A DNA stretch of 32,000 nt, taken from contig JALDRA010000002.1 of NCBI GenBank assembly GCA_031316235.1, positions 74,066 through 106,065 of the forward strand, written 5' to 3'. Source of the stretch: Candidatus Scalindua sp. GTDB lineage: Bacteria; Planctomycetota; Brocadiia; Brocadiales; Scalinduaceae. A program made the translations under genes and the position numbers. Of this stretch, positions 8,192-29,890 are shown one piece after another (the first letter of the stretch is position 1; the number at the start of each line of letters is the position of its first letter). The notes beneath the pieces were generated by a model that saw nothing but the letters and a program-made list of their open reading frames with translations, did no database searches and was not told the origin of the DNA.

Positions 8192-8197
8192 TTTGTA

Positions 8198-11820: not shown

Positions 11821-11859
11821 CATTTATTTGCTTTGCGTTCTTCGCGTCTTGGCGTGATA

Positions 11860-11966: not shown

Positions 11967-12082
11967 TACTACCCGGATACAAGGCAAGTAACAATTTCAT
12001 ATCTGAAATACACCCATGTACCTGAAGACTGCTGGGTAATTACAGGAACGCAGTAAATGGATAGTTTTCGTTACACTTACTA
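11967..12082 (+). repeat. P-family element, 5'-truncated copy
   Basis: cccggatacaaggcaagtaacaattt...gcagtaaatggatagttttcgttacacttacta. Its last bases contain the TAG stop (12080-12082, minus strand) of the giant gene. Confidence 0.6.
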
Positions 12083-15000: not shown

Positions 15001-15826
15001 TGTCGTTGTTTGCCGTATTGATGTAGGTGGCACCTTCCAGCCATACCGGTATTGCACTATAGGTATATCCACGGTCAATGTATACCAATCCACCATTCTG
15101 TAATCCATTTTCAACGATTTTATAGGCCTTGTTACTTGAGACAGTAAGGTTGGTAACAGAAACATTTGGCACTGGCGTGATGTCCGCATCATTAACCGTT
15201 ATCGTTATACTTTCCGAATCTGTCTCTTTACTGTCACTTACGTGAAAGGTTACATTAGAATATGTTCCTGCCTGACTATAGGTTGGCGTCCATGAAAATG
15301 TTCTGCTGTTTTCATCAAAGCTCGCACCACTGGGGAGATTGCTTGCCGTATAAGCAAGTGTATCTCCTTCTGGATCTGTAGCGGAAATAATCAAGTTTAA
15401 TGCCTGGTTTTCATTAACAGTTTTATTGCCGATCGCTGTTAATACCGGGGGAGAGTTAACTGATGTCAGATCGTTATAAACCACCTCATTAGAGTAAGTG
15501 CTTTCATTACCGGAGAAATCGTATGCCGTTACTGCCAGATAATAATCATTCCCGTCTCCAAGACCCGTAAGTGTGTAACTGGTCTGATTACCAACATCTT
15601 CATGAGAATTATAATTCCCACTTGACGTTCCGTAGTGTACTTTATAACCGGCAAGGTCATCTTCACTGTTTGGGTCCCATAATAACATATCAGCTTGCGC
15701 CGAACACAAATTGGATGTATTGATCAAAATCGCAAGGGTTAGTACGACAAAGGATATGATAGTGGAAATGGAGCAACGAAAATGGAGTGTTCTTGCAAGT
15801 TGCGATAAGACATTTTTTTGTGACAT
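12080..15826 (-). CDS. giant secreted repeat protein (FN3-like plus cadherin/He_PIG-like Ig repeats, adhesin-like)
   Basis: Signal/anchor at the N-terminus. Three FN3-like modules (WDPN.EDDLAGYKV.YG...YY.AVTAYD.SGNES.YS.EV), one He_PIG/cadherin-like module, seven ~83-aa repeats (EGDTVTL.PTA.D.DGD.LTFSYSGWMTS.SYTT..DAGDH.VTVTVSDG) and two ~150-aa modules (DRGYTYSAIPVW.EG.TYI.TANNDK...VIVYVAHDDR). RBS is aggagatactgtc before the ATG. Confidence 0.92.
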   Translation of the reverse strand: MSQKNVLSQLARTLHFRCSISTIISFVVLTLAILINTSNLCSAQADMLLWDPNSEDDLAGYKVHYGTSSGNYNSHEDVGNQTSYTLTGLGDGNDYYLAVTAYDFSGNESTYSNEVVYNDLTSVNSPPVLTAIGNKTVNENQALNLIISATDPEGDTLAYTASNLPSGASFDENSRTFSWTPTYSQAGTYSNVTFHVSDSKETDSESITITVNDADITPVPNVSVTNLTVSSNKAYKIVENGLQNGGLVYIDRGYTYSAIPVWLEGATYINTANNDKSSNSSSFLSFDVNKDVIVYVAHDDRITPKPSWLKSSFTDIGENLVTTDTTLSLYASNVISGTITLGGNEGSGKSMYTFVIVGQEVAEVNNAPVLDPLSGITVNEGDTVTLAPTATDADGDTLTFSYSGWMTSASYTTTHDDAGDHAVTVTVSDGTASDTQVVTITVNNVNQAPVLSTLSPVMVNEGDTVTLAPTATDADGDTLTFSYSGWMTSASYTTSYDDAGDHTVTVTVSDGTASDSQVVTITVNNVNRAPVLNPISGTGGDIQGTLFWDPNNEEDLAGYKVYYGTASGNYGSHTDVGIQTYCLFSGLISGETYYAAVTAYDSSGNESIYSGEVSFVAQDLENVVIVEEGDTVTLTPTAADPDGDALTFSYSGWMTSRSYTTNYNDAGTHTVTVTVSDGASIDSQDVTITVVDVMAHVNAAPLLDHIAGITVNEGDTVTLTPTASDPDGDPLTFSYSGWMTSASYTTSYNDAGDHAVTVTVSDGTASDTQSVTVTVNNVNQAPVLAHLTAVTVNEGDTVTLAPTASDPDGDPLTFSYSGWMTSASYGTSYDDAGDHIVTVTVSDGAASDSQSVTVTVNNVDITPEPDLSVTNLTVSSNQAYEIVENGLQKGGLVYIDRGYTYSAIPVWMEGVTYIKTANNDKASSSSSFLSFDVNKDVIVYVAHDDRITPKPSWLESSYTDIGEDLVTTDTTLSLYASNVISGTITLGGNEGAGKSMYTVVIVEQEEAGLNNAPVLDPLTNITVNEGDTVTFNPTATDPDGDALAFSYSGWMTSASYTTSYNDAGDHTVTVTVSDGSASDSQSVTVTVTNINRAPVLDAIPSIVVNEGVTITLNPTASDPDDDPLTYTYSGWMTSSAYTTTAQDAGGHTVTVTVSDGELTDYQDVTITVLDTNSDILAWDENTEEDIAGYKVYYGISSSNYDDIIDVGNQTTYDLSDLVSGVTYYLAVTAYNSSGNESGYSNEVLYDAN

Positions 15827-16002
15827 GACAGTATCTCCTATTTGTAGCCCAGCAACGACAGGTTAAAGAGATACTGTATTGCCTGGCAGCTTTGCAACCG
15901 TATCCTAAAATAGAGGACGTAGGCCTAAGTTTTGCGTCCTGCCCTTTCGAACAGTTTGCCTTTTTCAGGTTTTTATTAGATTTTTGTTATTTCTCAGTTA
16001 TA

Positions 16003-16139
16003 TACTAACACCAATCTGGTTTTAGATTTTTCTAAAAACCAAAGCCTGGTTAATGGTATCCCCGGACAACCAGGTGCCGAGGACTTTACTCATTCCGTTT
16101 TTTCTCGGATTTTATTTGAAATCCATTATATGACGAGTA
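16003..16139 (-). mobile_element. MITE-A copy (137 bp), flanked by TA/TA
   Basis: tactaacaccaatctggttttag...ggtatccccggacaaccaggtgccgaggactttac...tgacgagta. Confidence 0.8.
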
Positions 16140-16224
16140 TAAATTCGTTTTCATGTCTCGTAGCATAAGTTGTTAACGTTACGCAAATGTAATGCCTCAA
16201 CAAAACTTACCGTGACAAGTATAT

Positions 16225-16375
16225 AATTGTTCTTGAAGAGATACCGTGTGGTGGAACAAAGACTTTCCAGATACAAGGCGCGTAATAATTTGATAACCTG
16301 AAGTTAATCATGTGCTTGAGGATACTGGAATTAATAACGCAGCGCAGTAAATGGATCCTTTTCGTTCAAGCACTA
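16225..16375 (+). repeat. P-family palindromic element, full-length divergent copy
   Basis: ...ccagatacaaggcgcgtaataatttgataacc...gcttgaggatactggaattaataacgcagcgcagtaaatggatccttttcgttcaagcacta aligns with 25805-25953. Confidence 0.65.
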
Positions 16376-16690
16376 TAGAAAACAGCTGATCAAATAAACA
16401 TTTTAACAGCACATTTATTTGTTACTAAATATAGAGGGTAAGTTGATTTTATAAACACCATGATGCTTTATTAGTTATTGCCGCTTGGTTTTTGTCTTAT
16501 AGCGGTAAGAAAATATTTAATGCTTAAAAACTTTGGTTACCTGGTATTATCGTGACAATCCCAAAAATCATTAGCAAGAAAATAACAAACTTCAAGATCA
16601 AAGAGTTCAGCAGTTAACGGATGTTGAAGGATTCAGGATAGAGTTGAATGCTCACAGGATGTGTACGAAAACCATTATCCGATGAGTATA

Positions 16691-16886
16691 AAACTCACAA
16701 TGACATGATTTGTTTCGATATACCCATTGTGAATTACACCGGTAAAAAATAAGTTTTGGGAAAAACTCAATTGCTGGTGCGGGCAGAGTGGTAAACCAGA
16801 GACGTCCCTTCAAACTCTATAGCAGCCGGTAACACAGTCCGTTTTATCAGAAAAATTTAAAAACATTCATTCGCAGATTACACAGA
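16691..16886 (+). repeat. conserved non-coding leader of the four-helix-bundle cassette (copy 1 of 3)
   Basis: aaactcacaatgacatgatttgt...caattgctggtgcgggcagagtggtaaaccagagacgtcccttcaaactctatagcagccgg...cattcattcgcagattacacagag. Paralogous to 20968-21163 and 26231-26426. Confidence 0.8.
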
Positions 16887-16925
16887 GCTCATGGTTGATA
16901 GCTCATAGTTCATAGCTGATGGTTA
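16887..16925 (+). repeat. reverse-type heptamer arm immediately upstream of the cassette ORF
   Basis: gctcatggttgatagctcatagttcatagctgatggtta, identical to 21164-21202 and 26427-26465. Confidence 0.9.
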
Positions 16926-17150
16926 ATGATGGAGAAAATGTGTGAAACAAAGTTTAGTTTTGAAGATTTAGATGTCTGGCAAAAATCTATAGATTTTGCA
17001 GTGAGTGTTATTGGCATTGCAGATACAATGAATTCTGATCGCAATCATTATAGATTGATAGAACAATTAGAATCATCCCCAACATCAATTTCAGCAAATA
17101 TTGCTGAAGGTAAATGGCGTAATTCAATAAAGAAAACAATCACGAAATAA
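16926..17150 (+). pseudogene. four-helix-bundle protein gene with a 168-nt in-frame internal deletion
   Basis: Identical start MMEKMCETKFSFEDLDVWQKSIDFAVSV. The sequence jumps from ...cgtaattc to aataaagaaaac, and aattc is present at both breakpoints in the intact copy. 74 instead of 130 codons. Confidence 0.75.
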
Positions 17151-17401
17151 TTATCAACCATCAGCCATCAACCATAAACTTCTGAAGGCTGAACGCTTAA
17201 ACATAAACCATAAACCATGAGCCCTGAGCCATCAGCCATCAGCCATCAGCCATGAACCATGAGCTTTAATCTTTGAGCCTTTGGCTTTGTTTGTTTTTAT
17301 ACTTTTTAGATTTGACCCATTGCCCTTTCAGCCTTTAACTATGCCATGAGCTATGATCCATCAGCCATCAGCCATGAACCATCAGCCATGAACCATGAAC
17401 C
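17151..17401 (+). repeat. heptamer array with an embedded ~80-nt unique core
   Basis: Forward catcagc/catgaac units on both sides of the core gagctttaatctttgagcctttggctttgtttgtttttatactttttagatttgacccattgccctttcagcctttaacta (17262-17342), which recurs at 29683-29762. Confidence 0.85.
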
Positions 17402-17583
17402 AGGTGCAAAATAACAGGTGGCTGCCTGCTGTCATGACAGTACAACTGGGGCAGAAAACGAGGTTATAAACGATGTAGTTGATACGACAAGTCGCAGTTT
17501 ACAAAACCAGATAGTTGCTGATTTTTCGAAATTGTGCATGATGTTATTTATCCAACTGTTGAGCCTTAAACCTGGCAGCTTGT

Positions 17584-18225
17584 TCACGGTGTTACCATCA
17601 CTGATACCGTGGCCTCATTTGAAGTAGAACCAAAATTGTCACGGACCGTATACCTGAAAGTATCGACACCTGAGTACCCTGATTGAGGAGTGTACGTTAT
17701 CGTACCGTCCCAATTATTTACTAACATACCGTTGGCCGCAAAGCTCAGGATAACTACCGTAAAAGGATCAACATTGCCGTCGTGATCTATGTCATTGGCA
17801 ATAACATTAATGCTGACGGGAGTATCCCCATTTATTGCTATAGAATCGTCAACTGCAATCGGTGGTTGATTCCCAATGATATCGTTTGTATATTGCACCT
17901 CATTAGAGTAAGCACTTTCCCTACTGTAAAAATCATACGCAGTGACAGCAAGGTAATATGTCTCACCAATTGCAAGATCATCAAGCGGGAAACATGTCTG
18001 GGTAAAAACATCTATACCCGTTTCATAATTCCTGCTTGCTTTTCCATAATATACCTTGTAACCGGCAAGGTTCTGAGGAGGTGGAGAGTCCCAGACTAAT
18101 GTTCCTCCAGCTGACAAAATATCAGAATTGCAAAGAGAAATAATTGTTATTAAGAGTATGATATAACAAAAAAACTTTGTTCTCTTAATTGGTAATACAT
18201 CTTTGGTAAGCATTCGCAGGATCAA
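17584..18225 (-). CDS. secreted FN3-like plus cadherin-like domain protein
   Basis: FN3 module WDSPPPQNLAGYKVYYGKASRNYE...YYLAVTAYDFYSRESAYSNEV, then NQPPIAVDDSIAINGDTPVSINVIANDIDHDGN...YTPQSGYSGVDTFRYTVRD. The track start is a TTG, and the ATG at 18213 (MLTKD...) is more likely. Confidence 0.85.
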   Translation of the reverse strand: MILRMLTKDVLPIKRTKFFCYIILLITIISLCNSDILSAGGTLVWDSPPPQNLAGYKVYYGKASRNYETGIDVFTQTCFPLDDLAIGETYYLAVTAYDFYSRESAYSNEVQYTNDIIGNQPPIAVDDSIAINGDTPVSINVIANDIDHDGNVDPFTVVILSFAANGMLVNNWDGTITYTPQSGYSGVDTFRYTVRDNFGSTSNEATVSVMVTP

Positions 18226-18253
18226 AATTCACCGTTACAGATTAAAATCAATG

Positions 18254-18293
18254 CAAAAAAGGATGCAGAGCCCTTATAATGCCCTGCATCCTT
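18254..18293 (-). terminator. rho-independent terminator of the PEP-CTERM gene
   Basis: On the minus strand: aaggatgcag, 15-nt loop, ctgcatcctt, followed by tttt. Located 49 nt after the stop. Confidence 0.75.
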
Positions 18294-18307
18294 CCTAAAC
18301 TACTACT

Positions 18308-18360
18308 TACTATCAGCTATCAGCTATGAGCTATGAGCTATTCAGCTACCAGCTATTGAA
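18308..18360 (+). repeat. short heptamer array overlapping the 3' end of the PEP-CTERM gene
   Basis: ctatcagc, tatcagc, tatgagc, tatgagc, tattcagc, taccagc. The last codons of the gene (..SSIAGS*) and its stop are read from this array on the opposite strand. Confidence 0.8.
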
Positions 18361-18989
18361 CTAACGTTTTTATTCATCTTTTTCTTTCTCACAACACCCA
18401 TACCGACTAAACCTGTCAAACCCATTCCGAGAAGTACCAGTGTGGTTGGTTCAGGGACAGGGGGAGTACCGTTCGGGTCAGTGCCGGTGCCGGGATCGGT
18501 GCCGTCTTCCCAATTGAGGCTAAAAATTGACCTGCTCAGCTTAAGATATCCGTCTCCGAGATTTCCATTGGCAGTAATAGATACTGCAAGGGGTGAACCC
18601 GCAGTCCAAGGGTTAAAAATAGAAGGGCTAAGGCTGAAATTAGAAATTGAAGGATTCGAGCTGAAACCAAAACGACTAAAGCTAAAGCCACCACCAGCAT
18701 TTAAGTTCCCCACTGAGCGACCAGAAACTGAAACGATATCATTATAACCATCAACATAATAACCTTCAATACTAAGCGTTGCGCTGTTTACTATATCATA
18801 CGGAACTTCAAAATTCCCAGGGGTTGCATGGGCATAGTTAAAAGTATCGCCATATATCCATTTAGCAATGGGGCCCTCACCAATTTTTATTCCCAAACTT
18901 TGAGTATCAGTAAAAGTTAAAGCACTAACGTTCCTCGCCATTCCAAAAACTAACATCATTACACATAAAAAAAGTAAAGATTTTTTCAT
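18342..18989 (-). CDS. PEP-CTERM sorting-domain protein (putative exosortase substrate)
   Basis: Signal peptide MKKSLLFLCVMMLVFGMARNVSA. C-terminus VPEPTTLVLLGMGLTGLVGMGVVRKKK has the PEP motif, a TM helix and a basic cluster. RBS AAAGGA lies 7 nt upstream. Confidence 0.9.
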   Translation of the reverse strand: MKKSLLFLCVMMLVFGMARNVSALTFTDTQSLGIKIGEGPIAKWIYGDTFNYAHATPGNFEVPYDIVNSATLSIEGYYVDGYNDIVSVSGRSVGNLNAGGGFSFSRFGFSSNPSISNFSLSPSIFNPWTAGSPLAVSITANGNLGDGYLKLSRSIFSLNWEDGTDPGTGTDPNGTPPVPEPTTLVLLGMGLTGLVGMGVVRKKKMNKNVSSIAGS

Positions 18990-19107
18990 TTGTTATCCTT
19001 TCTGTTAAAAATTAATAAAATAAAAGCCGTTTGTTTTTCAGTTAATGTGACATGCAAACTTTCTCGCATTTAATTAACCTTGTTAAGCATCTTCGCTCAT
19101 ATACTCT

Positions 19108-19123
19108 AGCAATGCACATGCCA
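19108..19123 (-). promoter_or_regulatory. sigma-54 (-24/-12) promoter of the PEP-CTERM gene
   Basis: The minus strand reads TGGCATgtgcaTTGCT. GG and GC are separated by 10 nt as in the TGGCAC-N5-TTGCW consensus. About 120 nt upstream of the ATG at 18989. Confidence 0.75.
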
Positions 19124-19187
19124 TATCACATAACTCATTGTTTTCATGATGGATAGCGTAAGAAATCATAAAGAGAAAATTTCTAAA

Positions 19188-19205
19188 TGTAAAAATCTCT
19201 GACAC
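19188..19205. promoter_or_regulatory. upstream box 1 (TGT-N11-ACA type), candidate enhancer-binding site
   Basis: tgtaaaaatctctgacac, one of three related 18-mers upstream of the sigma-54 promoter. Confidence 0.5.
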
Positions 19206-19320
19206 CAAAACAGCCTTTTTCATAAAGTTTTTTGATAAGATTTTCCCAGGGAGTGCCGTAAGTGTCTATTTTGGCAAGAGTAAGATAAACAGCGTGACAA
19301 ATATGGTATCAAAATAATAG

Positions 19321-19338
19321 TGTAAAATATTCTGACAC
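19321..19338. promoter_or_regulatory. upstream box 2
   Basis: tgtaaaatattctgacac. Confidence 0.5.
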
Positions 19339-19443
19339 ATACTTAAGGGAATTGGGGAGAATTACAGATAAATGACATGCGTGCTTATTGCTAAGTATAT
19401 ACTATAAAGTAGCTTGCGTTATCTTATTATCTCCAGTAGAATA

Positions 19444-19461
19444 TGTAAAATTTCCTGACTT
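19444..19461. promoter_or_regulatory. upstream box 3 (degenerate right half)
   Basis: tgtaaaatttcctgactt. Confidence 0.4.
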
Positions 19462-19462
19462 C

Positions 19463-19535
19463 AGGAGTTTAGGAGTTCAAGGTAGAACGGTTCACGGTTG
19501 CTGGAAGATGAAGCTGATAGCTGATAGTTCAAAGG
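19463..19535 (+). repeat. reverse-type heptamer arm
   Basis: aggagttcaaggtagaacggttcacggttgctggaagatgaagctgatagctgatagttcaaagg, the complement of the gaacc / catcagc unit types. Confidence 0.75.
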
Positions 19536-19684
19536 ATAACGGATAAAGATTTATAGGATTTGATTACTTCTTTAACCTCGAGCTGTGAAGCTAAAGCCCG
19601 TAGGCTCTGTTCAACCGAACGCGGTTAGTTGTGTTAGCTTCATTATTTTGGCCGGTGTGGGTTTATGCCCCTGTAGTTTTTTTC

Positions 19685-19740
19685 AATTCTTCAACCCGTG
19701 AACTGTAAACATGGAACCAATCAGCCTGGCTGACCCAAAG
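19685..19740 (+). repeat. forward-type heptamer arm closing the 19463-19740 unit
   Basis: aattcttcaacccgtgaactgtaaacatggaaccaatcagcc. Confidence 0.65.
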
Positions 19741-20111
19741 ATCATGATAATGGTTGCATACTCAAGAGAGGGGAAACTTCATTACCATCATCCAAATCAT
19801 CGCTTCATTTCCGTTTCGTATTACGTGCATATTTCGTTTATCATTCCTGGTATTTGAAATTTGAAACCAGAGTCCCGGACATTTACCCTGTCTTCCAGTA
19901 TCGAACTTCAAGCCTTTGAGTCTTTGCGTGATTATACTTTCGAATATTATGCATTTACTGTAGTTGATTATCATTTTCCAAAGATCTCTCTGGTACCTGT
20001 TTTCAATATCAGCAATTCTCTTTATTGCACAACACCTCTCTTTTTTGATCTTCAGAACTCTATATATTCTCAGTAGCGTCCGGTTAGAAATTTGCACGTA
20101 CGGCTTTAGTC

Positions 20112-20185
20112 ATACCCGAGTGCTTTCATCGGGTATCCAGAGGTTTGTGGATCCTGGATTCCCGCTAAAAACATGCGGGAATGAC
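20112..20185. repeat. double-hairpin palindromic element
   Basis: atacccga/tcgggtat (20112-20136), tccag/ctgga (20136-20158) and attcccgc/gcgggaat (20158-20182). The outer halves gtcatacccga...gcgggaatgac are themselves inverted. Confidence 0.6.
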
Positions 20186-20225
20186 ATCTTTTGAACAATA
20201 AATATATCAAGCAAAAACCTAACCG

Positions 20226-20330
20226 GACAACGCTGATATATTCTCCCTTTTCCTGGCAAAATACTTCTATAACTTTTTCATCCGGGGTTGCCAACCAATA
20301 TTTCCACACACCTGATCCCTTTATTCCACA
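20226..20330 (-). pseudogene. possible C-terminal remnant of a Uma2-family (DUF820) endonuclease
   Basis: Reads ..GSGVWKYWLATPDEKVIEVFCQEKGEYISV, resembling the GV.EYW.VDP..k.vevy....g.Y end of Uma2 proteins. A stop lies just upstream and no N-terminal part is present. Confidence 0.3.
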
Positions 20331-20469
20331 TTAAGAATCCAGGATTACGAGACACACTTTGATGCTCTATTGAAAAAACAACAACTTGCTCCTTTTATAT
20401 AAACATGATTTTCCTGTATAATGCTTCAGGCAGGCAGAAGTTTGAAAATGGCACAGAACATGCATAATA

Positions 20470-20600
20470 TATTAAAACCGATTTAGTTTTTTCTAAAAAC
20501 CAACGCCTGGTTGCTGGTATCCCCGGACAAAAAACGCCGAGGACTTGTACTCGCTCCGTTTTTTCCCGGATTTTATCCGAAAACCATTATAAGATGGGTA
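20470..20600 (-). mobile_element. MITE-A copy (131 bp)
   Basis: tattaaaaccgatttagttttttctaaaaaccaacgcctggttgctggtatccccggacaaaaaacgccgaggac...ccgaaaaccattataagatgggta, flanked by TA/TA. Confidence 0.8.
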
Positions 20601-20744
20601 TACATCAAAAAAAAGTTTCTCGCAAAGCCGCAGGGTTCGCCAGGAAAAATGACAGAAAATGAAATAGGCAAGGTTGTGGTTGATGAGTCTATTGTTTTAG
20701 AGGAAAGTTTTTATGCTTTGCGTTCTTCGCGTCTTGGCGTGATA
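20601..20744 (+). pseudogene. GxxExxY-family gene remnant (5' flank, first ~19 codons and 3' flank)
   Basis: tacatcaaaaaaaagtttctcgcaaagccgcagggttcgccaggaaaaATGacagaaaatgaaataggcaaggttgtggttgatgag (MTENEIGKVVVDESIVL) is joined directly to ttttatgctttgcgttcttcgcgtcttggcgtga. Confidence 0.65.
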
Positions 20745-20824
20745 TACTAAAAGCAAAGTCTGGTTGCTGGTACACTCATTCAGTTTTTCTCGGATTTTGT
20801 CCGAAAACCATTATAAGATGTGTA
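20745..20824 (-). mobile_element. MITE-A copy (80-bp internally deleted variant)
   Basis: tactaaaagcaaagtctggttgctggtacactcattcagtttttctcggattttgtccgaaaaccattataagatgtgta. Near-identical copies lie at 21660-21739 and 26009-26088. Confidence 0.75.
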
Positions 20825-20856
20825 TATTTAAGATCCTGCGTAAAAAAAAACAGGTA

Positions 20857-20965
20857 TACTAAAACCGATTTGGTTGTCGGTTTTACCGGAAACAAAATCT
20901 TGGTTAATGGTATGCTCGCTCAATTTTATCTCGGATTTTATCCGAAAACCCTTATGAGATGAGTA
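20857..20965 (-). mobile_element. MITE-A copy (109-bp variant)
   Basis: tactaaaaccgatttggttgtcggttttaccggaaacaaaatcttggttaatggtatgctcgctc...gagatgagta, flanked by TA/TA. Confidence 0.8.
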
Positions 20966-20967
20966 TA

Positions 20968-21163
20968 AAACTCACAATGACATGATTTGTATCGATATAC
21001 CGATTGGGAACTCTCCCTGTAATCAATACGTTTGGGGCGAAACTCAATTGCTGGTGCAGGCAGAGTGGTAAATCAGAGACGTCCCTTCAAACTCTATAGC
21101 AGCCGGTAACACAGACCGTTTTATCAGAAAAATTTAAAAACATTCATACGCAGATTGCACAGA
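20968..21163 (+). repeat. conserved non-coding leader of the four-helix-bundle cassette (copy 2 of 3)
   Basis: By eye about 7 mismatches in about 200 nt versus 26231-26426. Confidence 0.85.
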
Positions 21164-21202
21164 GCTCATGGTTGATAGCTCATAGTTCATAGCTGATGGT
21201 TA
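21164..21202 (+). repeat. reverse-type heptamer arm (left arm of the cassette stem)
   Basis: gctcatggttgatagctcatagttcatagctgatggtta, ending one base before the ATG. Confidence 0.9.
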
Positions 21203-21595
21203 ATGATGGAGAAAATGTGTGAAACAAAGTTTAGTTTTGAAGATTTAGATGTCTGGCAAAAATCTATAGATTTTGCAGTGAGTGTTATTGGCATTGCAGA
21301 TACAATGAATTCTGATCGCAATCATTATAGATTGATAGAACAATTAGAATCATCCGCAACATCAATTTCAGCAAATATAGCTGAAGGGAAAGGACGTAAT
21401 TCCAAAAAAGAATTCATCCAATATCTATATATTGCACGTGGCGCACTATTTGAAACAATTACTTTTTTAACTATATTTTACAAAAAGAATTGGATATCCA
21501 ATTCAAAGCTTAATGATTTACGAATAGTAGGAGATACAATAGGTAAACAACTTTCAAGTCTCATAAATTCAATAAAGAAAACAATTACGAAATAA
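21203..21595 (+). CDS. four-helix-bundle protein (23S rRNA intervening-sequence protein / Avd family), intact copy
   Basis: 130 aa. FEDLDVWQKSIDFAVSV...HYRLIEQLESSATSISANIAEGKGRNSKKEFIQYLYIARGALFET is the characteristic pattern of this family. Confidence 0.88.
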   Translation: MMEKMCETKFSFEDLDVWQKSIDFAVSVIGIADTMNSDRNHYRLIEQLESSATSISANIAEGKGRNSKKEFIQYLYIARGALFETITFLTIFYKKNWISNSKLNDLRIVGDTIGKQLSSLINSIKKTITK

Positions 21596-21649
21596 CCATA
21601 AGCCATGAGCTATGAGCCATCAGCCATCAGCCATCAGCCATCAGCTATG
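21596..21649 (+). repeat. forward heptamer array (right arm of the cassette stem)
   Basis: ccataagccatgagctatgagccatcagccatcagccatcagccatcagctatg. Together with the TAA stop it is complementary to 21164-21202. Confidence 0.9.
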
Positions 21650-21659
21650 TGGCGTGATA

Positions 21660-21739
21660 TACTAAAAGCAAAGTCTGGTTGCTGGTACACTCATTCAGTT
21701 TTTCTCGGATTTTATCCGAAAACCATTATGAGATGAGTA
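21660..21739 (-). mobile_element. MITE-A copy (80-bp variant) 31 nt upstream of prsK
   Basis: tactaaaagcaaagtctggttgctggtacactcattcag...ccgaaaaccattatgagatgagta, flanked by TA/TA. Confidence 0.8.
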
Positions 21740-21769
21740 TATATTAACCGGACACTACTGTATATAAAG

Positions 21770-23935
21770 GTGACGAAAAATGAACATTTTATTGAAACCG
21801 ATATGCTTATCAGATTAATTTCAACAATCCCCATCATCAATGCGTGCTTGTGTCTTGGGCTAGGCGTGTTTACGCTCTCACGAAATCCGAAACGTACATC
21901 GAATATCGGATTCTTCCTGGGAATGCTCAGCCTTGCCATCCTCAACGCAGGAGATGCTACCCTGCTTTTGGGCGGGAACTCATACAGGATGGCTTTTAAT
22001 GGTATGAGACTCTCAATTGTGGGACAGTCTCTTTTACCTCCATCTCTCCTTCTTTTCTCAGTTGTATTTGCACGGAAAGAGCACAGGGCCGCTCTCATCC
22101 GCTGGCTGCCCCTCCTCGTGATAACGGCAGCAGCCTCGTTTGTATTTATATACTTTCTTATAACAAACGTGTTTGTTACCATTTCTCTTTTTAACCTGGC
22201 CGGAGACAAGGGCAGCTCTTTATACCTGGATGATACGCGGCTCATATTCGGCCCCATTGGTTACTACTTTTATATCTATTTTATTATTGGAACACTTTTA
22301 TGCCTCACAAACCTGGAAAGCACCTTCCGTTCGTCAAAAGGGATAAACCGTTTTCAGATAAAGTATGTTATTTTCTGCTTAGGGGGCATTCTCTTCTTTT
22401 TTATCTATCTTGCAAGCCAGATCTTACTCTTTTCAAATATAAGTATTCAGTTGATCCCTGCAAAATCACTAGTAACATTGATTTGTACCGTAATTATGAC
22501 ATTTTCAATTGTAAAACAGAGACTTTTAGATGTTGACATTTTTGTCTCCAGATATGTCGTATACAATTCAGTTGCTATTATCGGGACATGCACGTATCTT
22601 CTGGTGTTAGGAGTTGCTGTTGAGGCAATAAAGTTTTACCACCTCCCCTTTCATTATTTTATTAAAATACTCCTGATCTTTGTCTCGCTGTTTATTCTTG
22701 TTATTCTCCTCTTTGTCTCAGGACTTAGAAGAAAAATCCAGCTTTTTATTAACCGACATTTTTACAAGCACAAGTATGAGTTTCGAGATACATGGATGGA
22801 GACAATCGTAAGGATAAGTTCAAGAAACTCGATTGATGATATCTGTAACACCTTATTAGAAATGATTTCTCAACTGATGGGCGCTCAAAATGTAACTGTA
22901 TGGCTCTATAATTCAGCCAAACAGAAGTATACTGTTTTTCTGATGAATGACAAAAACGAAAAAAATAGTATTGGAGAAGGGCATGCCCTCATTGGAATCA
23001 TGAGAGAAAAGGGAGCCCCCTTTATCGTAAATGAACACTACGGCCGGCTATCTGGCAAACCAGATGGTGTAAAAGAAATTGAGGCAGTTATGAACTCAAC
23101 GAAAGCAGTGTTATGTTCACCAATGGAAGCAGCAGGTGAGCTTGTCGGCTTTATTCTCCAGGGAGAAGATATAGGAGGAGAATCCTACAGGGTTGATGAT
23201 TTTGAATTACTAAAGGCGCTCTCAACCCAGGCTGCTGTTCAGATAAAGAATATCCGTCTGGCTCAAGAACTCTCTACCGCAAAAGAGGTGGAGATGTTTC
23301 ATTGGTTGTCGTCCTTCGTGATGCATGACCTGAAAAATCTGACCAATTCACTATCTCTTATCACCCAGAATGCCCGGCATAACCTCGGCAATATCGAGTT
23401 CCAGAAAGATTCGGTCAAGACAATTGAATCCACCGTTAACAGGATGCAGGGATTAATTGATAGACTCTCTTCCTTACCCCGGGGGATAGAGCTGAAACGC
23501 GAATCAGTGGATCTGAAAACCATAGTCGAACATGTTCTTCAACAAGTAAAGCGTGACAAGAGAAAAAACATTTCCCTTGAAACAGAAATAGATAAAACCC
23601 CAATTGCCAGTATTGATCCTCACGCAATTGAAATGGTAATGATGAATCTTATTAATAACGCCTGTGATGCCATTGAAAGTGAAGGAAAGGTAGAATGCGG
23701 AATATGGGAAGAGAACAACGTTATCAAGGTGTCAGTGACCGATAATGGAAAGGGGATTTCCGATGCATTTATTGATACTTTTTTATTTAAACCTTTTAAA
23801 TCATCCAAAAAAGGTGGATTTGGAGTAGGACTTTTTCAATGTAAAGCCATTGTAGAGGCTCACAACGGAAGGATAGAGGTTAAAAGTAAGGAAGGGGTGG
23901 GCACAACTTTTACCATCAGTTTGCCTCATGGTTAG
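21770..23935 (+). CDS. prsK: PEP-CTERM-system sensor histidine kinase (PrsK type)
   Basis: N-terminal half with at least 8 hydrophobic segments and a central GAF-like region. H-box SFVMHDLKNLTNSL, N-box MNLINNACDA, G1 DNGKGI, G2 GGFGVGL. Immediately upstream of prsR. The start is a GTG at 21770 or the ATG at 21803. Confidence 0.85.
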   Translation: MTKNEHFIETDMLIRLISTIPIINACLCLGLGVFTLSRNPKRTSNIGFFLGMLSLAILNAGDATLLLGGNSYRMAFNGMRLSIVGQSLLPPSLLLFSVVFARKEHRAALIRWLPLLVITAAASFVFIYFLITNVFVTISLFNLAGDKGSSLYLDDTRLIFGPIGYYFYIYFIIGTLLCLTNLESTFRSSKGINRFQIKYVIFCLGGILFFFIYLASQILLFSNISIQLIPAKSLVTLICTVIMTFSIVKQRLLDVDIFVSRYVVYNSVAIIGTCTYLLVLGVAVEAIKFYHLPFHYFIKILLIFVSLFILVILLFVSGLRRKIQLFINRHFYKHKYEFRDTWMETIVRISSRNSIDDICNTLLEMISQLMGAQNVTVWLYNSAKQKYTVFLMNDKNEKNSIGEGHALIGIMREKGAPFIVNEHYGRLSGKPDGVKEIEAVMNSTKAVLCSPMEAAGELVGFILQGEDIGGESYRVDDFELLKALSTQAAVQIKNIRLAQELSTAKEVEMFHWLSSFVMHDLKNLTNSLSLITQNARHNLGNIEFQKDSVKTIESTVNRMQGLIDRLSSLPRGIELKRESVDLKTIVEHVLQQVKRDKRKNISLETEIDKTPIASIDPHAIEMVMMNLINNACDAIESEGKVECGIWEENNVIKVSVTDNGKGISDAFIDTFLFKPFKSSKKGGFGVGLFQCKAIVEAHNGRIEVKSKEGVGTTFTISLPHG

Positions 23936-24029
23936 ACGAAAAGATAAGCATCAGTAACTTTTTGTTACCATGGATCATTTATATACCCCGCAAGCCGCAA
24001 AGCTATTTAGAAAGTTATACGAAATTTGT

Positions 24030-24096
24030 CATTATCGTTTTTTTTACTTTTCCTTTGCGATCCCTGCGGCTTTGCGAGAAACTATTTTTTGATGTA
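24030..24096 (-). pseudogene. GxxExxY cassette 5'-flank remnant
   Basis: The reverse complement reads tacatcaaaaaatagtttctcgcaaagccgcagggatcgcaaaggaaaag... A solo MITE-A end follows at 24097-24122. Confidence 0.5.
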
Positions 24097-24186
24097 TACT
24101 CATCAGATAATGGCTTTCGGATATCAACGATAGACAGACCGGATCTGCCGAAGTATTTACGCCTTCGTTAAGGCACATTAATTAAT

Positions 24187-24232
24187 TAGTGCGCAAACGA
24201 AAACCTAGTGTTTGAACGAAAACTACCCATTT
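24187..24232. repeat. P-family element remnant forming the prsR 5' leader
   Basis: tagtgcgcaaacgaaaacctagtgtttgaacgaaaactacccatt matches terminal parts of the P element. It ends 13 nt before the prsR ATG, just ahead of the RBS aggagagg. Confidence 0.5.
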
Positions 24233-24245
24233 TATAGGAGAGGTA

Positions 24246-25595
24246 ATGGAAAAATCTAAAATCCTTGTCATAGAAGATGATGATGGGATCAGGACCCAGA
24301 TGAAATGGGCCCTGAATAAAGAGTACGATGTTTTGCTTGCCCCGAACACGAAAGAAGCTGTCAATATAATGGCCCGGTGTTCACCTCCTCTTGTTACCCT
24401 GGATCTTGGCCTTCCTCCTGACCCTGAAGGAACAGATGAAGGGTTTCGGCTCCTGCAGGAGATATTGAATATCTCCCCCTTCACAAAAGTCATTGTTGTA
24501 ACCGGGAACCCGGATAAAGAGGCACCTTTGCGCGCGGTATCAATGGGGGCTCATGATTTTTTTACAAAGCCGATTAATCTTGAGGAACTTAAATCTGTTG
24601 TAAAGAGAGCAGATTATGTCCAGGGACTCGAGAGTGAGCACAAGTCTCTGCAGGCGCAGCTGGGAGCCGATTCTTCCCCTGATATTATTGGTACCAGCAG
24701 TGAGATGGAGGATATATTTACTGCTATCCGAAAAGTATCCACAACTGATGTCCCCGTCCTCATAACAGGTGAAAGCGGTACCGGGAAGGAACTGGTTGCA
24801 AGGGCCATACATTTACAAGGCCAGAGGAAAAGAGGCCCCTTCATTCCCATCAACTGTGGGGCAATTCCGGAAAAGTTAATGGAGAGTGAACTTTTTGGTC
24901 ATGAAAAAGGTGCATATACCGGGGCACATGTACAAAGGAAGGGAAAGCTTGAACTGGCAGACAATGGAACGGTGTTTCTTGATGAAATTGGAGACCTCCC
25001 ATTACCGTTACAGGTTAAGCTGTTGAGAGTTCTCCAGGATCACAAACTTGAAAGAATTGGCGGTAGAGAGATGATTGATCTGGAAGTCAGGTTTCTTGCT
25101 GCAACAAATAAAGACCTGGAAGAGCTGGTCAGAAATGGAGAGTTCAGAGAAGATCTTTATTACCGGCTTGCTGTTGTGTCGATTAAAGTCCCTGCTCTTC
25201 GTAAAAGAGGTGAGGATGCCCTCATACTGGCAAAGAGTTTTTTAAAGAAATATGGAAAAACAAACAAAAAACCCATGAGACTGGGTGAAGATGCTGTCCA
25301 GGCAATAAAAAAGTACTCATGGCCGGGTAATGTAAGAGAACTTGAGAACAAGATCCAGCGGGCAATTGCTTTTACCGAAGGAGGGCAGATATCCGCCTCA
25401 GATCTTGGCCTTACTCCCTCCACAAATGAATTTTCATTGAATCTTAAAACAGCGAAAGAGCGTTTAGAGACGGATTACATTAAAATGGCTCTGGTCAAGT
25501 GTGGCGGCAATATCAGCCACGCAGCTCAGGAAATGGGTATCTCAAGGCCGACGCTTCATGGGCTTATGAAAAAATACCGTATCGAGACAAAATAG
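24246..25595 (+). CDS. prsR: PEP-CTERM-box response regulator, sigma-54-dependent transcriptional activator (PrsR type)
   Basis: Receiver domain [19 protein letters not shown]...[18 protein letters not shown]...[11 protein letters not shown]+ domain with GESGTGKE, the sigma-54 contact loop GAYTGA, and RED/R-finger. C-terminal Fis-type [28 protein letters not shown]. Confidence 0.93.
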
Positions 25596-25689
25596 CTGAA
25601 GAACTTTAATGTAAAATAATTGCAGAAACAAAGCCGGAGGGGTCACCTATTTGCTATTTGTTTTACTGAAAACCATTGTCAGACAAGTA

Positions 25690-26008
25690 TATATCAAAAA
25701 ATAGTTTCTCGCAAAGCCGCAGAGATCGCAAAGAAGAATGACAGAAAATGAAATAGGCAATGTTGTGGTTGATGAGTCTATTGTTTTACAGGAAAAGATG
25801 TATATAGTGCCTGAACAGAAACCCTGTGGTTGAACGAAAACGGCCCAGATACAAGGTGCGTAATAATTTTGTAACCGAAACTTACTAAAGCACTTGAGGA
25901 TTAAGAAATTATTACAGCAACACAGTAGATGGGTAGTTTTCGTTCAACTACTATATAAAAGATTTTAAATGTTTTTATGCTTTGCGTTCTTCGCGTCTTC
26001 GCGTGATA
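25690..26008 (+). pseudogene. GxxExxY-family gene remnant split by a P-element insertion
   Basis: tatatcaaaaaatagtttctcgcaaagccgcagagatcgcaaagaagaATGacagaaaatgaaataggcaatgttgtggttgatgag... then the P element, then aaaagattttaaatgtttttatgctttgcgttcttcgcgtcttcgcgtga. Confidence 0.65.
25805..25953 (+). mobile_element. P-family palindromic element (~149 bp), reference full copy
   Basis: Ends tagtgcctgaacagaaacc and ggtagttttcgttcaactacta are inverted. The internal arms gcgtaataatt/aattattacagc are also inverted. Flanked by TA, with an uninterrupted paralogous site in 8223-8379. Confidence 0.7.
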
Positions 26009-26088
26009 TACTAAAAGCAAAGTCTGGTTGCTGGTACACTCATTCAGTTTTTCTCGGATTTTGTCCGAAAACCATTATAAGATGTGTA
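26009..26088 (-). mobile_element. MITE-A copy (80-bp variant)
   Basis: Paralogue of 20745-20824. Confidence 0.75.
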
Positions 26089-26119
26089 TATTTAAGATCC
26101 TGCGTAAAAAAAACAGGTA

Positions 26120-26228
26120 TACTAAAACCGATTTGGTTTTCGGTTTTACCGGAAACAAAATCTTGGTTAATGGTATGCTCGCTCAGTTTTATCTCGGACT
26201 TTATCCGAAAACCATTATGTGATGAGTA
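26120..26228 (-). mobile_element. MITE-A copy (109-bp variant)
   Basis: Paralogue of 20857-20965. Confidence 0.8.
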
Positions 26229-26230
26229 TA

Positions 26231-26426
26231 AAACTCACAATGACATGATTTGTATCGATATACCCATTGGGAACTCTCCCTGTAATCAATACGTTTTGGG
26301 CGAAACTCAATTGCTGGTGCAGGCAGAGTGGTAAATCAGAGACGTCCCTTCAAACTCAATAGCAGCGGGTAACACAGACCGTTTTATCAGAAATATTTAA
26401 AAACATTCATTCGCAGATTGCACTGA
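26231..26426 (+). repeat. conserved non-coding leader of the four-helix-bundle cassette (copy 3 of 3)
   Basis: See 20968-21163. Confidence 0.85.
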
Positions 26427-26465
26427 GCTCATGGTTGATAGCTCATAGTTCATAGCTGATGGTTA
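26427..26465 (+). repeat. reverse-type heptamer arm
   Basis: Identical to 21164-21202. Confidence 0.9.
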
Positions 26466-26996
26466 ATGATGGAGAAAATGTGTGAAACAAATTTTAGTTT
26501 TGAAGATTTAGATGTCTGGCAAAAATCTATAGATTTTGCAGTGAGTGTTATTGACATTGCAGATACAATGAATTCTGATCGCAATAATTATAGATTGATA
26601 GAACAATTAGAATCATCCGCAACATCAATTTCAGCAAATATACTCATTTCATAATAGTTTTCGGATAAAATCCGAGTAAAAACGGAGCGAGTAAAGTCCT
26701 CGGCGCTTTTTGTCCGGGGATAACTGCAACCAAGATTTGTTTTTCAGAAAAACCGAAAACCAAATCGGTTTTAGTATATTGCTGAAGGGAAAGGACGTAA
26801 TTCCAAAAAAGAATTCATCCAATATCTATATATTGCACGTGGCTCACTATTTGAAACAATTACTTTTTTAACTATATTTTACAAAAAGAATTGGATCTCC
26901 AATTCAAAGCTTAATGATTTACGAATAGTAGGAGATACAATAGGTAAACAACTTTCAAGTCTCATAAATTCAATAAAGAAAACAATTACGAAATAA
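26466..26996 (+). pseudogene. four-helix-bundle protein gene disrupted by a MITE-A insertion
   Basis: Reads as the intact copy up to ...tcagcaaata, resumes at ttgctgaagggaaaggacg, and ends at the same acgaaataa stop. The 136-bp insert plus 2-bp duplication introduces a stop (ORF 26466-26654). Confidence 0.9.
26641..26776 (+). mobile_element. MITE-A copy inserted in the four-helix-bundle gene, with TA target-site duplication
   Basis: gcaaaTA[tactcatttcataatagttttcgg...caaatcggttttagta]TAttgctgaagg, compared with the uninterrupted gcaaatattgctgaagg at 17095-17111. Confidence 0.92.
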
Positions 26997-27140
26997 CCAT
27001 GAGCCATAAGCCACGAGCTATTAGCTATGAACCATCCGCCATGAGCAATGAGCAATGAGCTATTAGCAATGAACCATAAGCCATCAACCCAGAACCTCTG
27101 AACGCTGAACCATCAGCTATGAGCTATCAGCCATGAGCCA
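26997..27140 (+). repeat. forward heptamer array
   Basis: ccatgagc, cataagc, cacgagc, tattagc, tatgaac, ... ccagaac, ctctgaac. Confidence 0.9.
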
Positions 27141-27179
27141 CATTTATTTGCTTTGCGTTCTTAGCGTCTTGGCGTGATA

Positions 27180-27286
27180 TACAAAAATCAAAGCCTGTTT
27201 GCAGTTATCCCCGGACAAATGGCACCGAGGACTTTACTCGCTCTGTTTGTTCCCGGAGTTTTCTAAAAACCATTACATGATAAGTA
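27180..27286 (-). mobile_element. MITE-A copy (107-bp variant) 61 nt upstream of the sugar-transferase ORF
   Basis: tacaaaaatcaaagcctgtttgcagttatccccggacaaatggcaccgaggactttac...cattacatgataagta. Preceded by the GxxExxY 3' flank, as at 11821-11859. Confidence 0.75.
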
Positions 27287-27346
27287 TATTTTGACCAATA
27301 GCTGCTCTGAAAACATCCGCCCATCATAAAAGAAAGAGGATTAAAA

Positions 27347-28658
27347 ATGCTGAAGTTAATCTGGTTCTTGAAAAGAGAAAAAAAATTAAACAGGATAGAC
27401 CATAAGAAGTTACAAGTTGACTTCCATTCCGAAAAAACATTTAAACAGATCCTTGTGCGGGAATGCGTTCGCTGTGACAGAAACGGACATAGATTTTCTC
27501 TTGTGATCTTTGAAGTTGTGGAAAAGACCCGGGAAGCCTTCGAGAAACTTGTGAGAATACTGCATAACCGACAGAAACGTTTGTGTGATGAATATGGTTG
27601 GTATAATGACCGGCATATCGCTGTGATTCTGTGTGATACAGACAGACAAAGTGCGCTGTGTTTCGCTGAAGATATTCGTGAAAAGGCTTCTTCCAATGGA
27701 CAATCAGTTAAATTTGCCGTTTATGAATATCCGGACAACTGGCAAGACATATATTCCAGGAGTGGAAGTTTACAGAAACCCCATTTTAATGGAAGTATTA
27801 AAAAAAGTGAGATAAAAAATCCAGATAGATCAAGGTTTTACGCAGGAAAAGACGAGAGACGATCACCTGAGGTTTTCTCCGTACTCCGTAACAACCAAGA
27901 TCTGGACCACTCAATACCCGCCATAAAAATTCCTGGTTCTTTTAACTGTGGAACACCGGCATTGAAACGCGTGATTGATGTTATCGGTTCTCTTGCAGGT
28001 CTTGTTCTGTTGTTACCTCTCGTTGTTTTGCTATCTCTTGTTATCAAGATTGTGTCTCCCGGAGGGCCAGTTTTTATCAAAGAGGAGCGAGTAGGGTTTT
28101 TAGGCAAAAGGGTAGCCTTGTGGAGATTCCGCACGATGAATGCCTGTAACGACGATAGAAAAAAGAGCAGCACCAGTCCGGGTTGCTGATTGGAACAGTG
28201 TGGTATACTAAAACCGATTTAGTTTTATAATTTACTAAAAACCAAAACCTGGTTTCAGTGATACTTGCTCCGTTATTTCTCGTATTTTGTCCGAAAACCA
28301 TTATAAGATGAGTATATAAAAGGAGGGTGAAAGTGTTACTATGGAAACTGCAAACGAAGAAATACGTTTAATACCATTAGGCAGCATAATTTGTAAACTG
28401 CGCATTGATAAATTACCACAGTTAATCAATGTGCTCCTTGGGGAATTGAGTCTTATAGGGCCGAGTCCGGCGACTCCAAACCAGATAAGAGAAGATCATC
28501 CCTGGCACAGGGAGCGTTTCCATGCTATTCCCGGACTGATCGGGTTACACGATACTCGTGAAAAGAACCAACTCCCCTTTGACGAGATAATGCGTAAAGA
28601 CATTCGGTATGTACGCCAACAGTCATTGTGGTTTGACATAAATATTTTAAAGAAGAGA
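27347..28658 (+). pseudogene. degenerate GGDEF-like domain fused to a sugar-transferase (PGT) domain, fragmented and interrupted by MITE-A
   Basis: ORF 27347-28189 has RFSLVIFEV...GWYNDRHIAVILCDTDRQSA (GGDEF-like topology with the motif replaced), then KRVIDVIGSLAGLVLLLPLVVLLSLVIKIVSPGGPVFIKEERVG...FRTM, then a stop. After the MITE the matching C-terminal half continues in another frame: IRLIPLGSIICKLRIDKLPQLINVLLGELSLIGPSP. DK replaces the DE dyad and PSP replaces PRP. Confidence 0.6.
28206..28314 (-). mobile_element. MITE-A copy inside the sugar-transferase reading region, flanked by TA/TA
   Basis: tggTA[tactaaaaccgatttagttttataatttactaaaaaccaaaacc...ccgaaaaccattataagatgagta]TAtaaaagg. Confidence 0.85.
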
Positions 28659-29415: not shown

Positions 29416-29890
29416 CCATGAGCCATCAACCCTGAACCTTGAACCTCTGAACCCAGAATCTCTGAACGCTGAACCCAGAACCTTGAACCTTGAACCTCTG
29501 AACCCAGAATCTTGAACCTCTGAACCCAGAACCTCTGAACCTCTGAACCCAGAACCTCTGAACCTCTGAACGCTGAACCATCAGCTATGAGCCATCAGCC
29601 GTCAGCCATGAGCTATGAGCTATCAGCTATCAGCCATCAACCATGAGCCATGAGCCATCAGCCATCAGCCATCAACAATGAGCTTTAATCTTTGAGCCTT
29701 TGGCTTTGTTTGTTTTTATACTTTTTAGATTTCACCCATTGCCCTTTCAGCCTTTAACTATTCCATGAGCCATAAGCCATAAACCTCTGTACGCTGAACC
29801 CAGAACCTCTGAACGCTTAACCATGAGCCATCAACCTCTGAACGCTTAACCATCAGCCATGAGCCATGAGCTATGAGCCATCAGCCATCC
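29416..29890 (+). repeat. largest heptamer/octamer array (~475 bp) with the embedded 80-nt core
   Basis: Blocks of cctgaac/ctctgaac/ccagaac (29430-29580), catcagc/catgagc (29580-29680), the core (29683-29762, equal to 17262-17342), then mixed units to 29890. No ORF. Confidence 0.9.

Follow-up and report, generated by a model that had tools for sequence, protein, structure and literature searches.

In a 32,000-nt stretch of Candidatus Scalindua sp. contig JALDRA010000002.1, hereafter the window, whose positions serve as coordinates throughout, an intact gene for a PF05635/TIGR02436 four-helix-bundle protein lies between two inverted arrays of 7-nt repeats (copy B; Table 1), a layout that we also found around homologous genes in many phyla. 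The gene and its inverted heptamer arrays form a discrete unit that carries its own repeat type across phyla. The protein is that of the intervening sequences (IVSs) of 23S rRNA ('S23p', TIGR02436); it has been known since 1993, with a structure since 2006, and is still without an assigned function. We lean toward reading the unit as a free-standing, IVS-type guest cassette, the arms of which would pair in the transcript and be cut by RNase III; processing and mobility are what we infer.

In copy B, the first 39 nt of the 3′ array (21593-21631) pair with the 5′ arm through 33 Watson-Crick pairs and 2 G-U pairs, with 4 mismatches over the 39 positions, in the register chosen by the original prediction, which was made from the bare sequence; its arm sequences, arm coordinates and pair counts were all reproduced when we rechecked them. 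Both arms show a period of 7/14 in a tandem repeat scan, and stop codons close all three frames within the 39 nt of the left arm. Folding of positions 21140-21670 as RNA gave -127.5 kcal/mol, against a shuffle mean of -103 (z -4.1, with 0 of 100 shuffles as good), and folding of the same region as single-stranded DNA (ssDNA) gave a z of -2.7. The stem appears in the minimum free energy and centroid structures for both RNA and ssDNA, in agreement with the proposal that a heptamer-built stem encloses the open reading frame (ORF) in its loop. Copy B therefore shares with rRNA IVSs the terminal inverted repeats that close a long stem, here one of 39 nt.

The ORF within this loop matches PF05635 over profile positions 1-105 of 106 (E 8e-29, 100.5 bits, cut-off 33.8) and TIGR02436 at E 6e-30 (103.8 bits, cut-off 24), and its product has the NIAEG motif and the invariant Q/S/S/E columns. 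An exact-protein look-up of the ORF returned no match, a viral-contig scan with the family alignment returned no relatives, and PADLOC reported no defense family. The third ATG, at 21215, is probably the start, giving 126 aa; it is favored because GGAG at 21208-21211 precedes it and because it aligns with the starts of homologues. The stem would then probably end about 12 nt before the real start, placing the Shine-Dalgarno sequence in the loop, just 3′ of the arm. The closest solved relatives are XCC0516 (PDB 2GSC, E 3e-11) and 2RLD, by homology to which we predict a homopentamer of four-helix bundles.

Selection has kept this gene and its relatives. The dN/dS of the copy B ORF is 0.09-0.10 against its homologues in Kuenenia and on L053, a related contig from the European Nucleotide Archive (ENA), and most homologue pairs give 0.09-0.17; two near-identical Atribacterota copies give 0.49, with very few substitutions. 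Purifying selection acts on PF05635 ORFs. The original prediction had named three outcomes that would speak against it, none of which was seen in a decisive form; two of them were ORF copies evolving neutrally with none intact elsewhere, and arms pairing no better than shuffled heptamer arrays. Intact copies exist and their dN/dS is low; as for the arms, flank complementarity of copy B exceeds that of shuffled flanks with a z of 17, and arms at homologous loci outscore the flanks of control genes by a wide margin.

A survey of 50 fetched loci encoding homologues (24-88% identity, many phyla) places the window copy in a general pattern. We scored flank complementarity as the Smith-Waterman score between the 80-nt flanks on either side of a gene, with 172 other genes in the same loci as controls. 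The median was 50 for 46 PF05635 genes vs 23 for the controls (Mann-Whitney p 1.7e-17), and a score of at least 45 was reached by 59% of PF05635 genes and by 2% of controls. Lag-7 identity was 0.46-0.49 in both PF05635 flanks vs 0.30 in controls, with no signal at lag 6 or 8. Clear stems were present at 28 loci, where they have a median of 32 bp (range 21-59), are 85% Watson-Crick paired, and lie at a distance of ~10 nt from both the ATG and the stop. The units differ from locus to locus (AGTGATC, CGTGACA, GTGACGG, AGTGAAA, TTGGTTT, AGTTTTT, AAAGCTC, TAGGAGT and others) and the arrays range from 2 to more than 20 units; in 26 of 27 loci, the 5′ and 3′ units are reverse complements of each other. 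Similarity of the units tracks similarity of the proteins across host phyla (Mantel r 0.42, 0 of 5000 permutations as high). Seen from Planctomycetota to cyanobacteria, Bacteroidota, Nitrospirota, Atribacterota, Campylobacterota and the candidate phyla radiation, the gene between inverted heptamer arrays extends the IVS-like layout proposed for one locus to many phyla.

The unit also appears in more than one place within and between genomes. One Atribacterota metagenome-assembled genome has two copies that are 95% identical over 491 nt, the homology being bounded by the arrays; no target-site duplication was seen at the ends of these cassettes. Cassettes that are 80% identical occupy different operons in L032 and L045 (Nitrospira and Thermodesulfovibrionales genomes), and orthologous copies stay at the same sites, with their stems kept, in genomes as little as 69% identical. 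In Atribacterota L026 (~3390-3421) and L028 (~1600-1640), TATATTTAAAGAGGGAGGA follows the 3′ array just before the ATG of two different host genes, and the downstream gene may receive a ribosome-binding site from the inserted cassette.

In six of six plasmid loci, five of them from Nostoc, Anabaena or Calothrix and with Riemerella also represented, a G-rich heptamer array precedes the gene and its complement follows it (scores 58-94), with the unit pairs GGTGACA/CTGTCAC, GGAGTAG/TCCCTAC, GGGGAAA/CCCTTTT, GGGTGTR/ACACCCY and GGTTYAA/AACCTTR; the plasmid protein search had matched almost only these three genera, plus Riemerella. Since plasmid loci in cyanobacteria share the layout, the PF05635 family is tied to arrays of the short tandemly repeated repetitive (STRR) type. 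The association of gene and arrays is widespread, not universal.

Arrays and genes are strongly oriented. Of the 5′ arrays, 25 of 28 have more G than C; of the 3′ arrays, 27 of 31 have more C than G. Stop triplets upstream of the gene number 318 in the sense direction vs 141 in the reverse complement (37 loci vs 5; controls 393/350), and those downstream number 297 antisense vs 175 sense (controls 404 sense, 301 antisense). The upstream 70 nt is closed in all three frames at 32 of 47 loci vs 36 of 97 controls, and a frequent GTRA core contains TGA or TAA. On the upstream side, 45 of 46 neighboring genes are co-oriented with the cassette, and on the downstream side 36 of 42, mostly across spacers of 30-110 nt, and the host operons are unrelated to one another. 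Given the co-orientation, the short spacers and these unrelated operons, we regard the cassette as a guest of host operons. Among the 20 genes directly downstream, ten belong to sugar-nucleotide or polysaccharide pathways (four epimerase/dehydratase genes, two for hexapeptide acetyltransferases, and one each for DegT, UDP-glucose dehydrogenase, a Wzz-type kinase and a cytidylyltransferase); others include serS, acetyl-CoA synthase/carbon monoxide dehydrogenase (ACS/CODH), ftsY, nuoE, an ATP synthase subunit, nrd, hisF and, after a Lutibacter cassette, a NusG-like gene.

The window itself holds five cassette copies: copy B is intact, copies A and C and a 5′-truncated relic at 11533 are decayed, and the fifth is a 3′-tail relic. 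In copy A, an in-frame 168-nt deletion between AATTC repeats has left an ORF of 74 aa, and the 3′ region (17151-17402) consists of composite arrays with a ~85-nt spacer. In copy C, the ORF is split by a ~139-nt insertion resembling a miniature inverted-repeat transposable element (MITE). An inverted-repeat scan pairs the arms of copies A and C over 37 nt at 81% and over 38 nt at 79%, respectively. The relic at 11533-11685 was found by tblastn (82% identity, E 2e-22), and the array at 29428-29888 is counted as the fifth because its ~85-nt spacer is common to the 3′ tails of copy A and L053. This spacer (window 17262-17342 and 29684-29762; L053 10412-10490), GCTTTAATCTTTGAGCCTTTGGCTTTG...CCCTTTCAGCC, resembles a decayed CTTTGAG/CTTTCAG array, the unit type around Flavobacteriia homologues (L005-L008).

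Tandem Repeats Finder located period-7 arrays at seven window loci, five of which are cassette parts or relics; the arrays are head-to-tail 7-nt units in intergenic DNA, as in STRR sequences. Forward-type units make up 13 segments on the + strand. Reverse-type units on that strand lie only 5′ of three cassette ORFs, apart from one 2.5-unit scrap at 19514 (19514-19534, AGCTGAT AGCTGAT AG), which no ORF relic adjoins and which may be the remains of a 5′ arm. An Rfam search of the window found no rRNA gene, its sole match being a c-di-GMP-I riboswitch; the cassette flanks are protein-coding, and copy B is not inserted in a 23S or 16S rRNA helix. The description of a free-standing, multi-copy IVS-like cassette outside rRNA is upheld by a window that has no rRNA gene and contains five copies or relics.

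We judged the specificity of the arm by direct comparison with the real arrays of the window. The left arm pairs at 33 of 39 positions with the arrays at 11693 and 29847 as well, equal to its own partner. The stem exists because the ORF is preceded by an inverted array of the same unit family, and it is this inversion that calls for an explanation. What is non-random is the reverse-oriented array 5′ of the gene.

As the original prediction had noted, an identical left arm and a conserved leader, put at ~195 nt, precede the decayed ORFs at 16926 and 26466; we measured the leader at 196 nt and 90-96% identity. It is kept in all copies of this lineage that retain their 5′ part, including that of L053, and it was not found upstream of the Kuenenia homologue, making it lineage-specific. 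It has no Rfam match (E up to 1) and no sigma-70 consensus, its fold is not stable (z-score +0.9), and a scan of Joint Genome Institute (JGI) metagenomes with an 18-nt leader word gave three chance matches only. The leader is possibly a promoter or a 5′ untranslated region.

The closest named relatives are from Ca. Kuenenia stuttgartiensis (86% amino-acid identity), where the gene lies between a glycosyltransferase and an epimerase gene (CP049055.1, around 3.084 Mb) and is flanked on each side by CTGATAG-type units. Immediately after the stop, the Kuenenia-type loci L003, L054 and L010 have a short array in reverse orientation and then a forward one, separated by a ~14-nt loop (ctgatagctgatggctgat-tttagatgtaaaat-ccatgagccatgagccat), a structure that resembles an 'empty' array hairpin without an ORF. 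The PF05635 coding sequence of L003 (CAZXCP010000073.1, binned as 'uncultured Ignavibacteriaceae') is identical to that of Kuenenia L054 (CP049055.1) and has the same neighbors; the L003 contig is probably mis-binned.

Comparison with L053, which is syntenic with window positions 4228-15978 at 88-97% identity, shows cassettes changing between close relatives. At the FKBP / Ig-protein site, L053 has a DDE transposase gene and an intact cassette 99% identical to copy B, whereas the window has the truncated relic, a state that amounts to a ~3.1-kb deletion relative to L053. The transposase gene (L053 7589-9652) is of the DDE_5 family, with DruA and Mom domains also matched, and lies immediately upstream of the cassette. 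At the copy A site, L053 has no cassette, and the interval is too diverged for exact junctions. The comparison of relatives for empty sites that the original prediction had proposed thus yielded no clean empty site. From the differences at these two sites, we conclude that cassettes are gained, lost and eroded between close relatives. Separately, a TGAACCC array between rsfS and an M54 peptidase gene (window 7266-7395; L053 ~3046-3059) is ~12 units longer in the window than in the 97%-identical contig L053; the length of this array is polymorphic between close relatives.

Among known systems, the nearest in anatomy is the 23S rRNA IVS with an S23p/PF05635 ORF, found in Leptospira, Coxiella burnetii, Haemophilus and Brucella, which likewise has its ORF in the loop of a long terminal-repeat stem. 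The Coxiella IVS has a 28-bp terminal stem and is excised by RNase III, which cuts at the first repeat; three tandem GACAGAT heptamers, varying in number by strain, lie directly 5′ of the S23p ATG, and the ORF is thought not to be expressed (PMC4990558). Tandem heptamers 5′ of the ATG and ORFs that are often decaying are thus common to both. Unlike rRNA IVSs, the window cassette is intergenic and its homologues lie between protein-coding genes, and it has a 196-nt leader, 3′ arrays that run far past the stem and several copies within 20 kb; intact PF05635 cassette copies are under purifying selection, in contrast to the seemingly unexpressed Coxiella ORF.

The arrays resemble STRR and TAACTGA repeats (Beggiatoaceae, cyanobacteria, Bacteroidetes), which are also 7-nt tandem intergenic arrays and often lie directly upstream of starts. 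Those are direct repeats before many unrelated genes, whereas the cassette has an inverted pair around one gene. TAACTGA repeats upstream of start codons have stops in all three frames in one orientation (PMC4679880), and heptamers, abundant and unexplained, are more common than any other periodic repeat between prokaryotic genes (bioRxiv 10.1101/309039). In the literature we searched, STRR and TAACTGA repeats were not linked to any gene family. PF05635 genes in cas operons and near diversity-generating retroelements (DGRs) have been noted without mention of repeats (PMC3936711, PMC10910872, PMC10053308), and we found no paper describing inverted heptamer arrays around non-rRNA PF05635 genes, although our coverage of the literature is incomplete and a prior description is possible.

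Other likenesses are more partial. Integron cassettes are also promoterless ORF units with a foldable imperfect palindrome, co-oriented in a transcribed array; the present cassette differs in having no integrase or single attC, in a palindrome whose halves flank the ORF, and in arms made of tandem repeats. No integrase was found in the window, and the attC with IntI/attI that defines an integron is absent. The RNase III stems between cistrons in phage T7 early mRNA and rRNA operon spacers are likewise long imperfect duplexes that part co-transcribed units, but there the duplex belongs to the host transcript and not to a portable gene cassette. We also considered whether the cassette is itself a MITE and rejected this, as it encodes a protein under selection and no target duplication was seen.

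In the mechanism we propose, the cassette would be transcribed by read-through from the host operon, while in the Kuenenia-like lineage of the window the 196-nt leader may supply transcription instead; we consider use of its own leader there because two of the four ORF-bearing copies in the window are antisense to their neighbors. The two arrays would pair in the transcript as an imperfect duplex of ~30-60 bp, closing a ~400-nt loop that contains the Shine-Dalgarno sequence and the ORF. RNase III would cut this duplex as it does in 23S rRNA, producing a monocistronic message and uncoupling the guest from the host transcript. With a 7-nt period, which is not a multiple of 3, and a stop triplet in most units, the arrays would close all frames entering from either side and so hold ribosomes away from the arms. 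Like Avd, the accessory variability determinant of DGRs, the PF05635 protein may bind nucleic acid, perhaps the arrays themselves.

Several observations weigh against this mechanism. In the window, the arm shows no specificity for its own partner and the register is not special, and no promoter was recognized in the leader in a check for the sigma-70 consensus. The arms of the Kuenenia operon copy pair weakly. Mismatches in the surveyed arms are G:T in 33 cases vs A:C in 39, so there is no wobble signature of a sense-RNA stem. The intact genes of L004 and L044 lie between direct arrays and lack a usable stem, L027 has an array upstream only, and two Firmicute-like loci from a phage collection carry the gene without arrays. 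One Nostoc array (GGGGAAA) has no stop triplet, so the frame-closing idea is not universal. The equal mismatches and the intact genes without stems weaken a strict requirement for an RNA stem and keep alive models based on a DNA hairpin or on protein-binding arrays. In L004 (Omnitrophota, 2330-3040), the gene lies inside a long same-orientation TTAGGAA/TTAGGAC array, so no stem is possible there.

The DNA hairpin model, which we consider unlikely, treats the cassette as a DNA-level element comparable to integron attC sites or to repetitive extragenic palindromes and their associated transposases (REP/RAYT): the arrays would be terminal inverted repeats, or an ssDNA hairpin or cruciform, serving a trans-acting recombinase or template switching, and the RNA stem would be incidental. 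That ssDNA folding also yields the stem and that G:T and A:C mismatches are equally frequent would both be expected of such an element, as would discrete, array-bounded, multi-copy units whose presence differs between related genomes, and the dispersed arrays of the same unit could be recombination targets. However, no recombinase is present in or beside the cassettes, among the window ORFs and the surveyed neighbors; the Atribacterota cassette ends have no target-site duplications; and the G-rich 5′ and C-rich 3′ polarity, together with co-orientation, points to a strand-specific constraint on the transcript. Somewhat less credible still is that the heptamers are reiterated RNA or DNA sites for a pentameric protein, used in autoregulation or packaging, with complementarity following from the same site being present on both sides. 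The arm in the window has ~5.6 units, and the closest solved homologue, 2GSC, was deposited as five chains and described as a homopentamer (PMC4990558). According to a preprint, the relative Avd works in complex with a reverse transcriptase (RT) and structured RNA. Many units conserve a GTRA-like core, and the units co-vary with protein phylogeny across host phyla, but co-variation is equally expected from co-inheritance, array length is far from constant (2 to more than 20 units), and binding alone gives no reason for the 3′ array to be inverted, as it is in 26 of 27 loci, and not direct.

The window is rich in forward arrays, unrelated ones serve the left arm equally well as pairing partners, and heptamers are so common between prokaryotic genes (bioRxiv 10.1101/309039) that the arrays could be generic intergenic filler around an ordinary small gene, the stem being a functionless by-product. 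We find such a coincidence improbable, as reverse-type arrays occur only 5′ of cassette ORFs plus the 19514 scrap, cassette parts or relics make up five of the seven array loci, and the association holds across phyla, with different units, against control genes. Least credible of all is a DGR remnant in which the ORF would be the Avd accessory gene. The original prediction had made the comparison with Avd, and of this the family and fold stand, Avd being likewise a small basic helical-bundle protein, but the cassette has no RT and no template repeat/variable repeat (TR/VR) pair, and the search against solved structures matched 2GSC and 2RLD, not Avd 4DWL. To our knowledge, heptamer arrays have not been described for avd genes. 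A domain search of the 20 longest ORFs of the window found no RT, nor is there any among the 20 downstream neighbors of homologues or the ORFs flanking the two phage-collection loci, and a repeat scan of 15800-28000 gave no TR/VR pair, the families there being cassette copies, MITE-like units and heptamer arrays. It remains that PF05635 is the Pfam family most often adjoining DGR RTs (PMC10053308). The two phage-collection matches were considered as an Avd contrast and set aside, being unverified records that resemble Firmicute chromosomes, with no arrays and no RT.

The cassettes lie within an apparent PEP-CTERM / exopolysaccharide locus (17584-29309; Table 1). A look-up of its response regulator returned matches only on 1.6-kb contigs broken at the repeats. 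The c-di-GMP-I riboswitch (15882-15970, - strand, 62 bits, E 4e-10) is directly upstream of a gene for a 1248-aa Ig/PKD/cadherin-repeat protein (12080-15826, - strand). The MITE-like element in copy C (26641-26779) has TATACT...AGTATA ends, an internal TCGGA-loop-TCCGA hairpin and ATAT on both sides; its relatives (families D6, D8 and D10) lie in the intergenic regions 16001-16144, 20462-20970, 21650-21744, 25661-26233 and 27143-27290, and the element appears to have been recently mobile.

Table 1. Cassette copies, relics and neighboring genes of the window.
Feature	Position	Strand	Details
Copy B, leader	20968-21163	+	196 nt, non-coding; 96% identical to 26231-26426, 90% to 16691-16886
Copy B, 5′ arm	21164-21202	+	5.6 reverse-type heptamers (CTSATRG); identical in copies A and C
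Copy B, PF05635/TIGR02436 four-helix-bundle ORF	21203-21595	+	Intact; 130 codons from 21203
Copy B, 3′ arm and array	21593-21649	+	~8 forward heptamers (CCATSAG); starts with the TAA stop
Copy A	16691-17402	+	Leader 16691-16886; arm 16887-16925; ORF 16926-17150; 3′ arrays 17151-17402
Copy C	26231-27140	+	Leader 26231-26426; arm 26427-26465; ORF 26466-26996; 3′ arrays 26997-27140
5′-truncated relic	11533-11814	+	Last 51 ORF codons 11533-11685; 3′ arrays 11687-11814
3′-tail relic	29428-29888	+	Composite heptamer arrays enclosing the ~85-nt spacer; no ORF left
PEP-CTERM protein	18342-18989	-	
GAF histidine kinase	21770-23935		
Sigma-54 response regulator	24246-25595		
Bac_transf sugar transferase	27347-28189		Only the domain start matched
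Bac_transf sugar transferase	28341-29309		Whole domain matched

What is new here is an IVS-type element outside rRNA, and its broader value lies in the family-wide link between the gene and heptamer arrays. The link joins two puzzles, an IVS protein without an assigned function and heptamers that, like STRR and TAACTGA repeats, have lacked an explanation, and the anatomy shared with rRNA IVSs excised by RNase III gives a testable model. Tentatively, and as a possibility we hold at less than even strength, we speculate that PF05635 genes and prokaryotic intergenic heptamer arrays, including those of STRR type, may be two halves of one widespread system, in which a portable operon-guest cassette would carry, maintain and leave behind its own arrays, and an Avd-like protein would act on them, either by binding or by assisting a polymerase or RT in their copying. 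On this view, many orphan arrays would be cassette relics, as two of those in the window are. For annotation, the finding bears on cassettes inside cas, nuo, atp, nrd, CODH/ACS and polysaccharide operons, which have been read as functional partners there.

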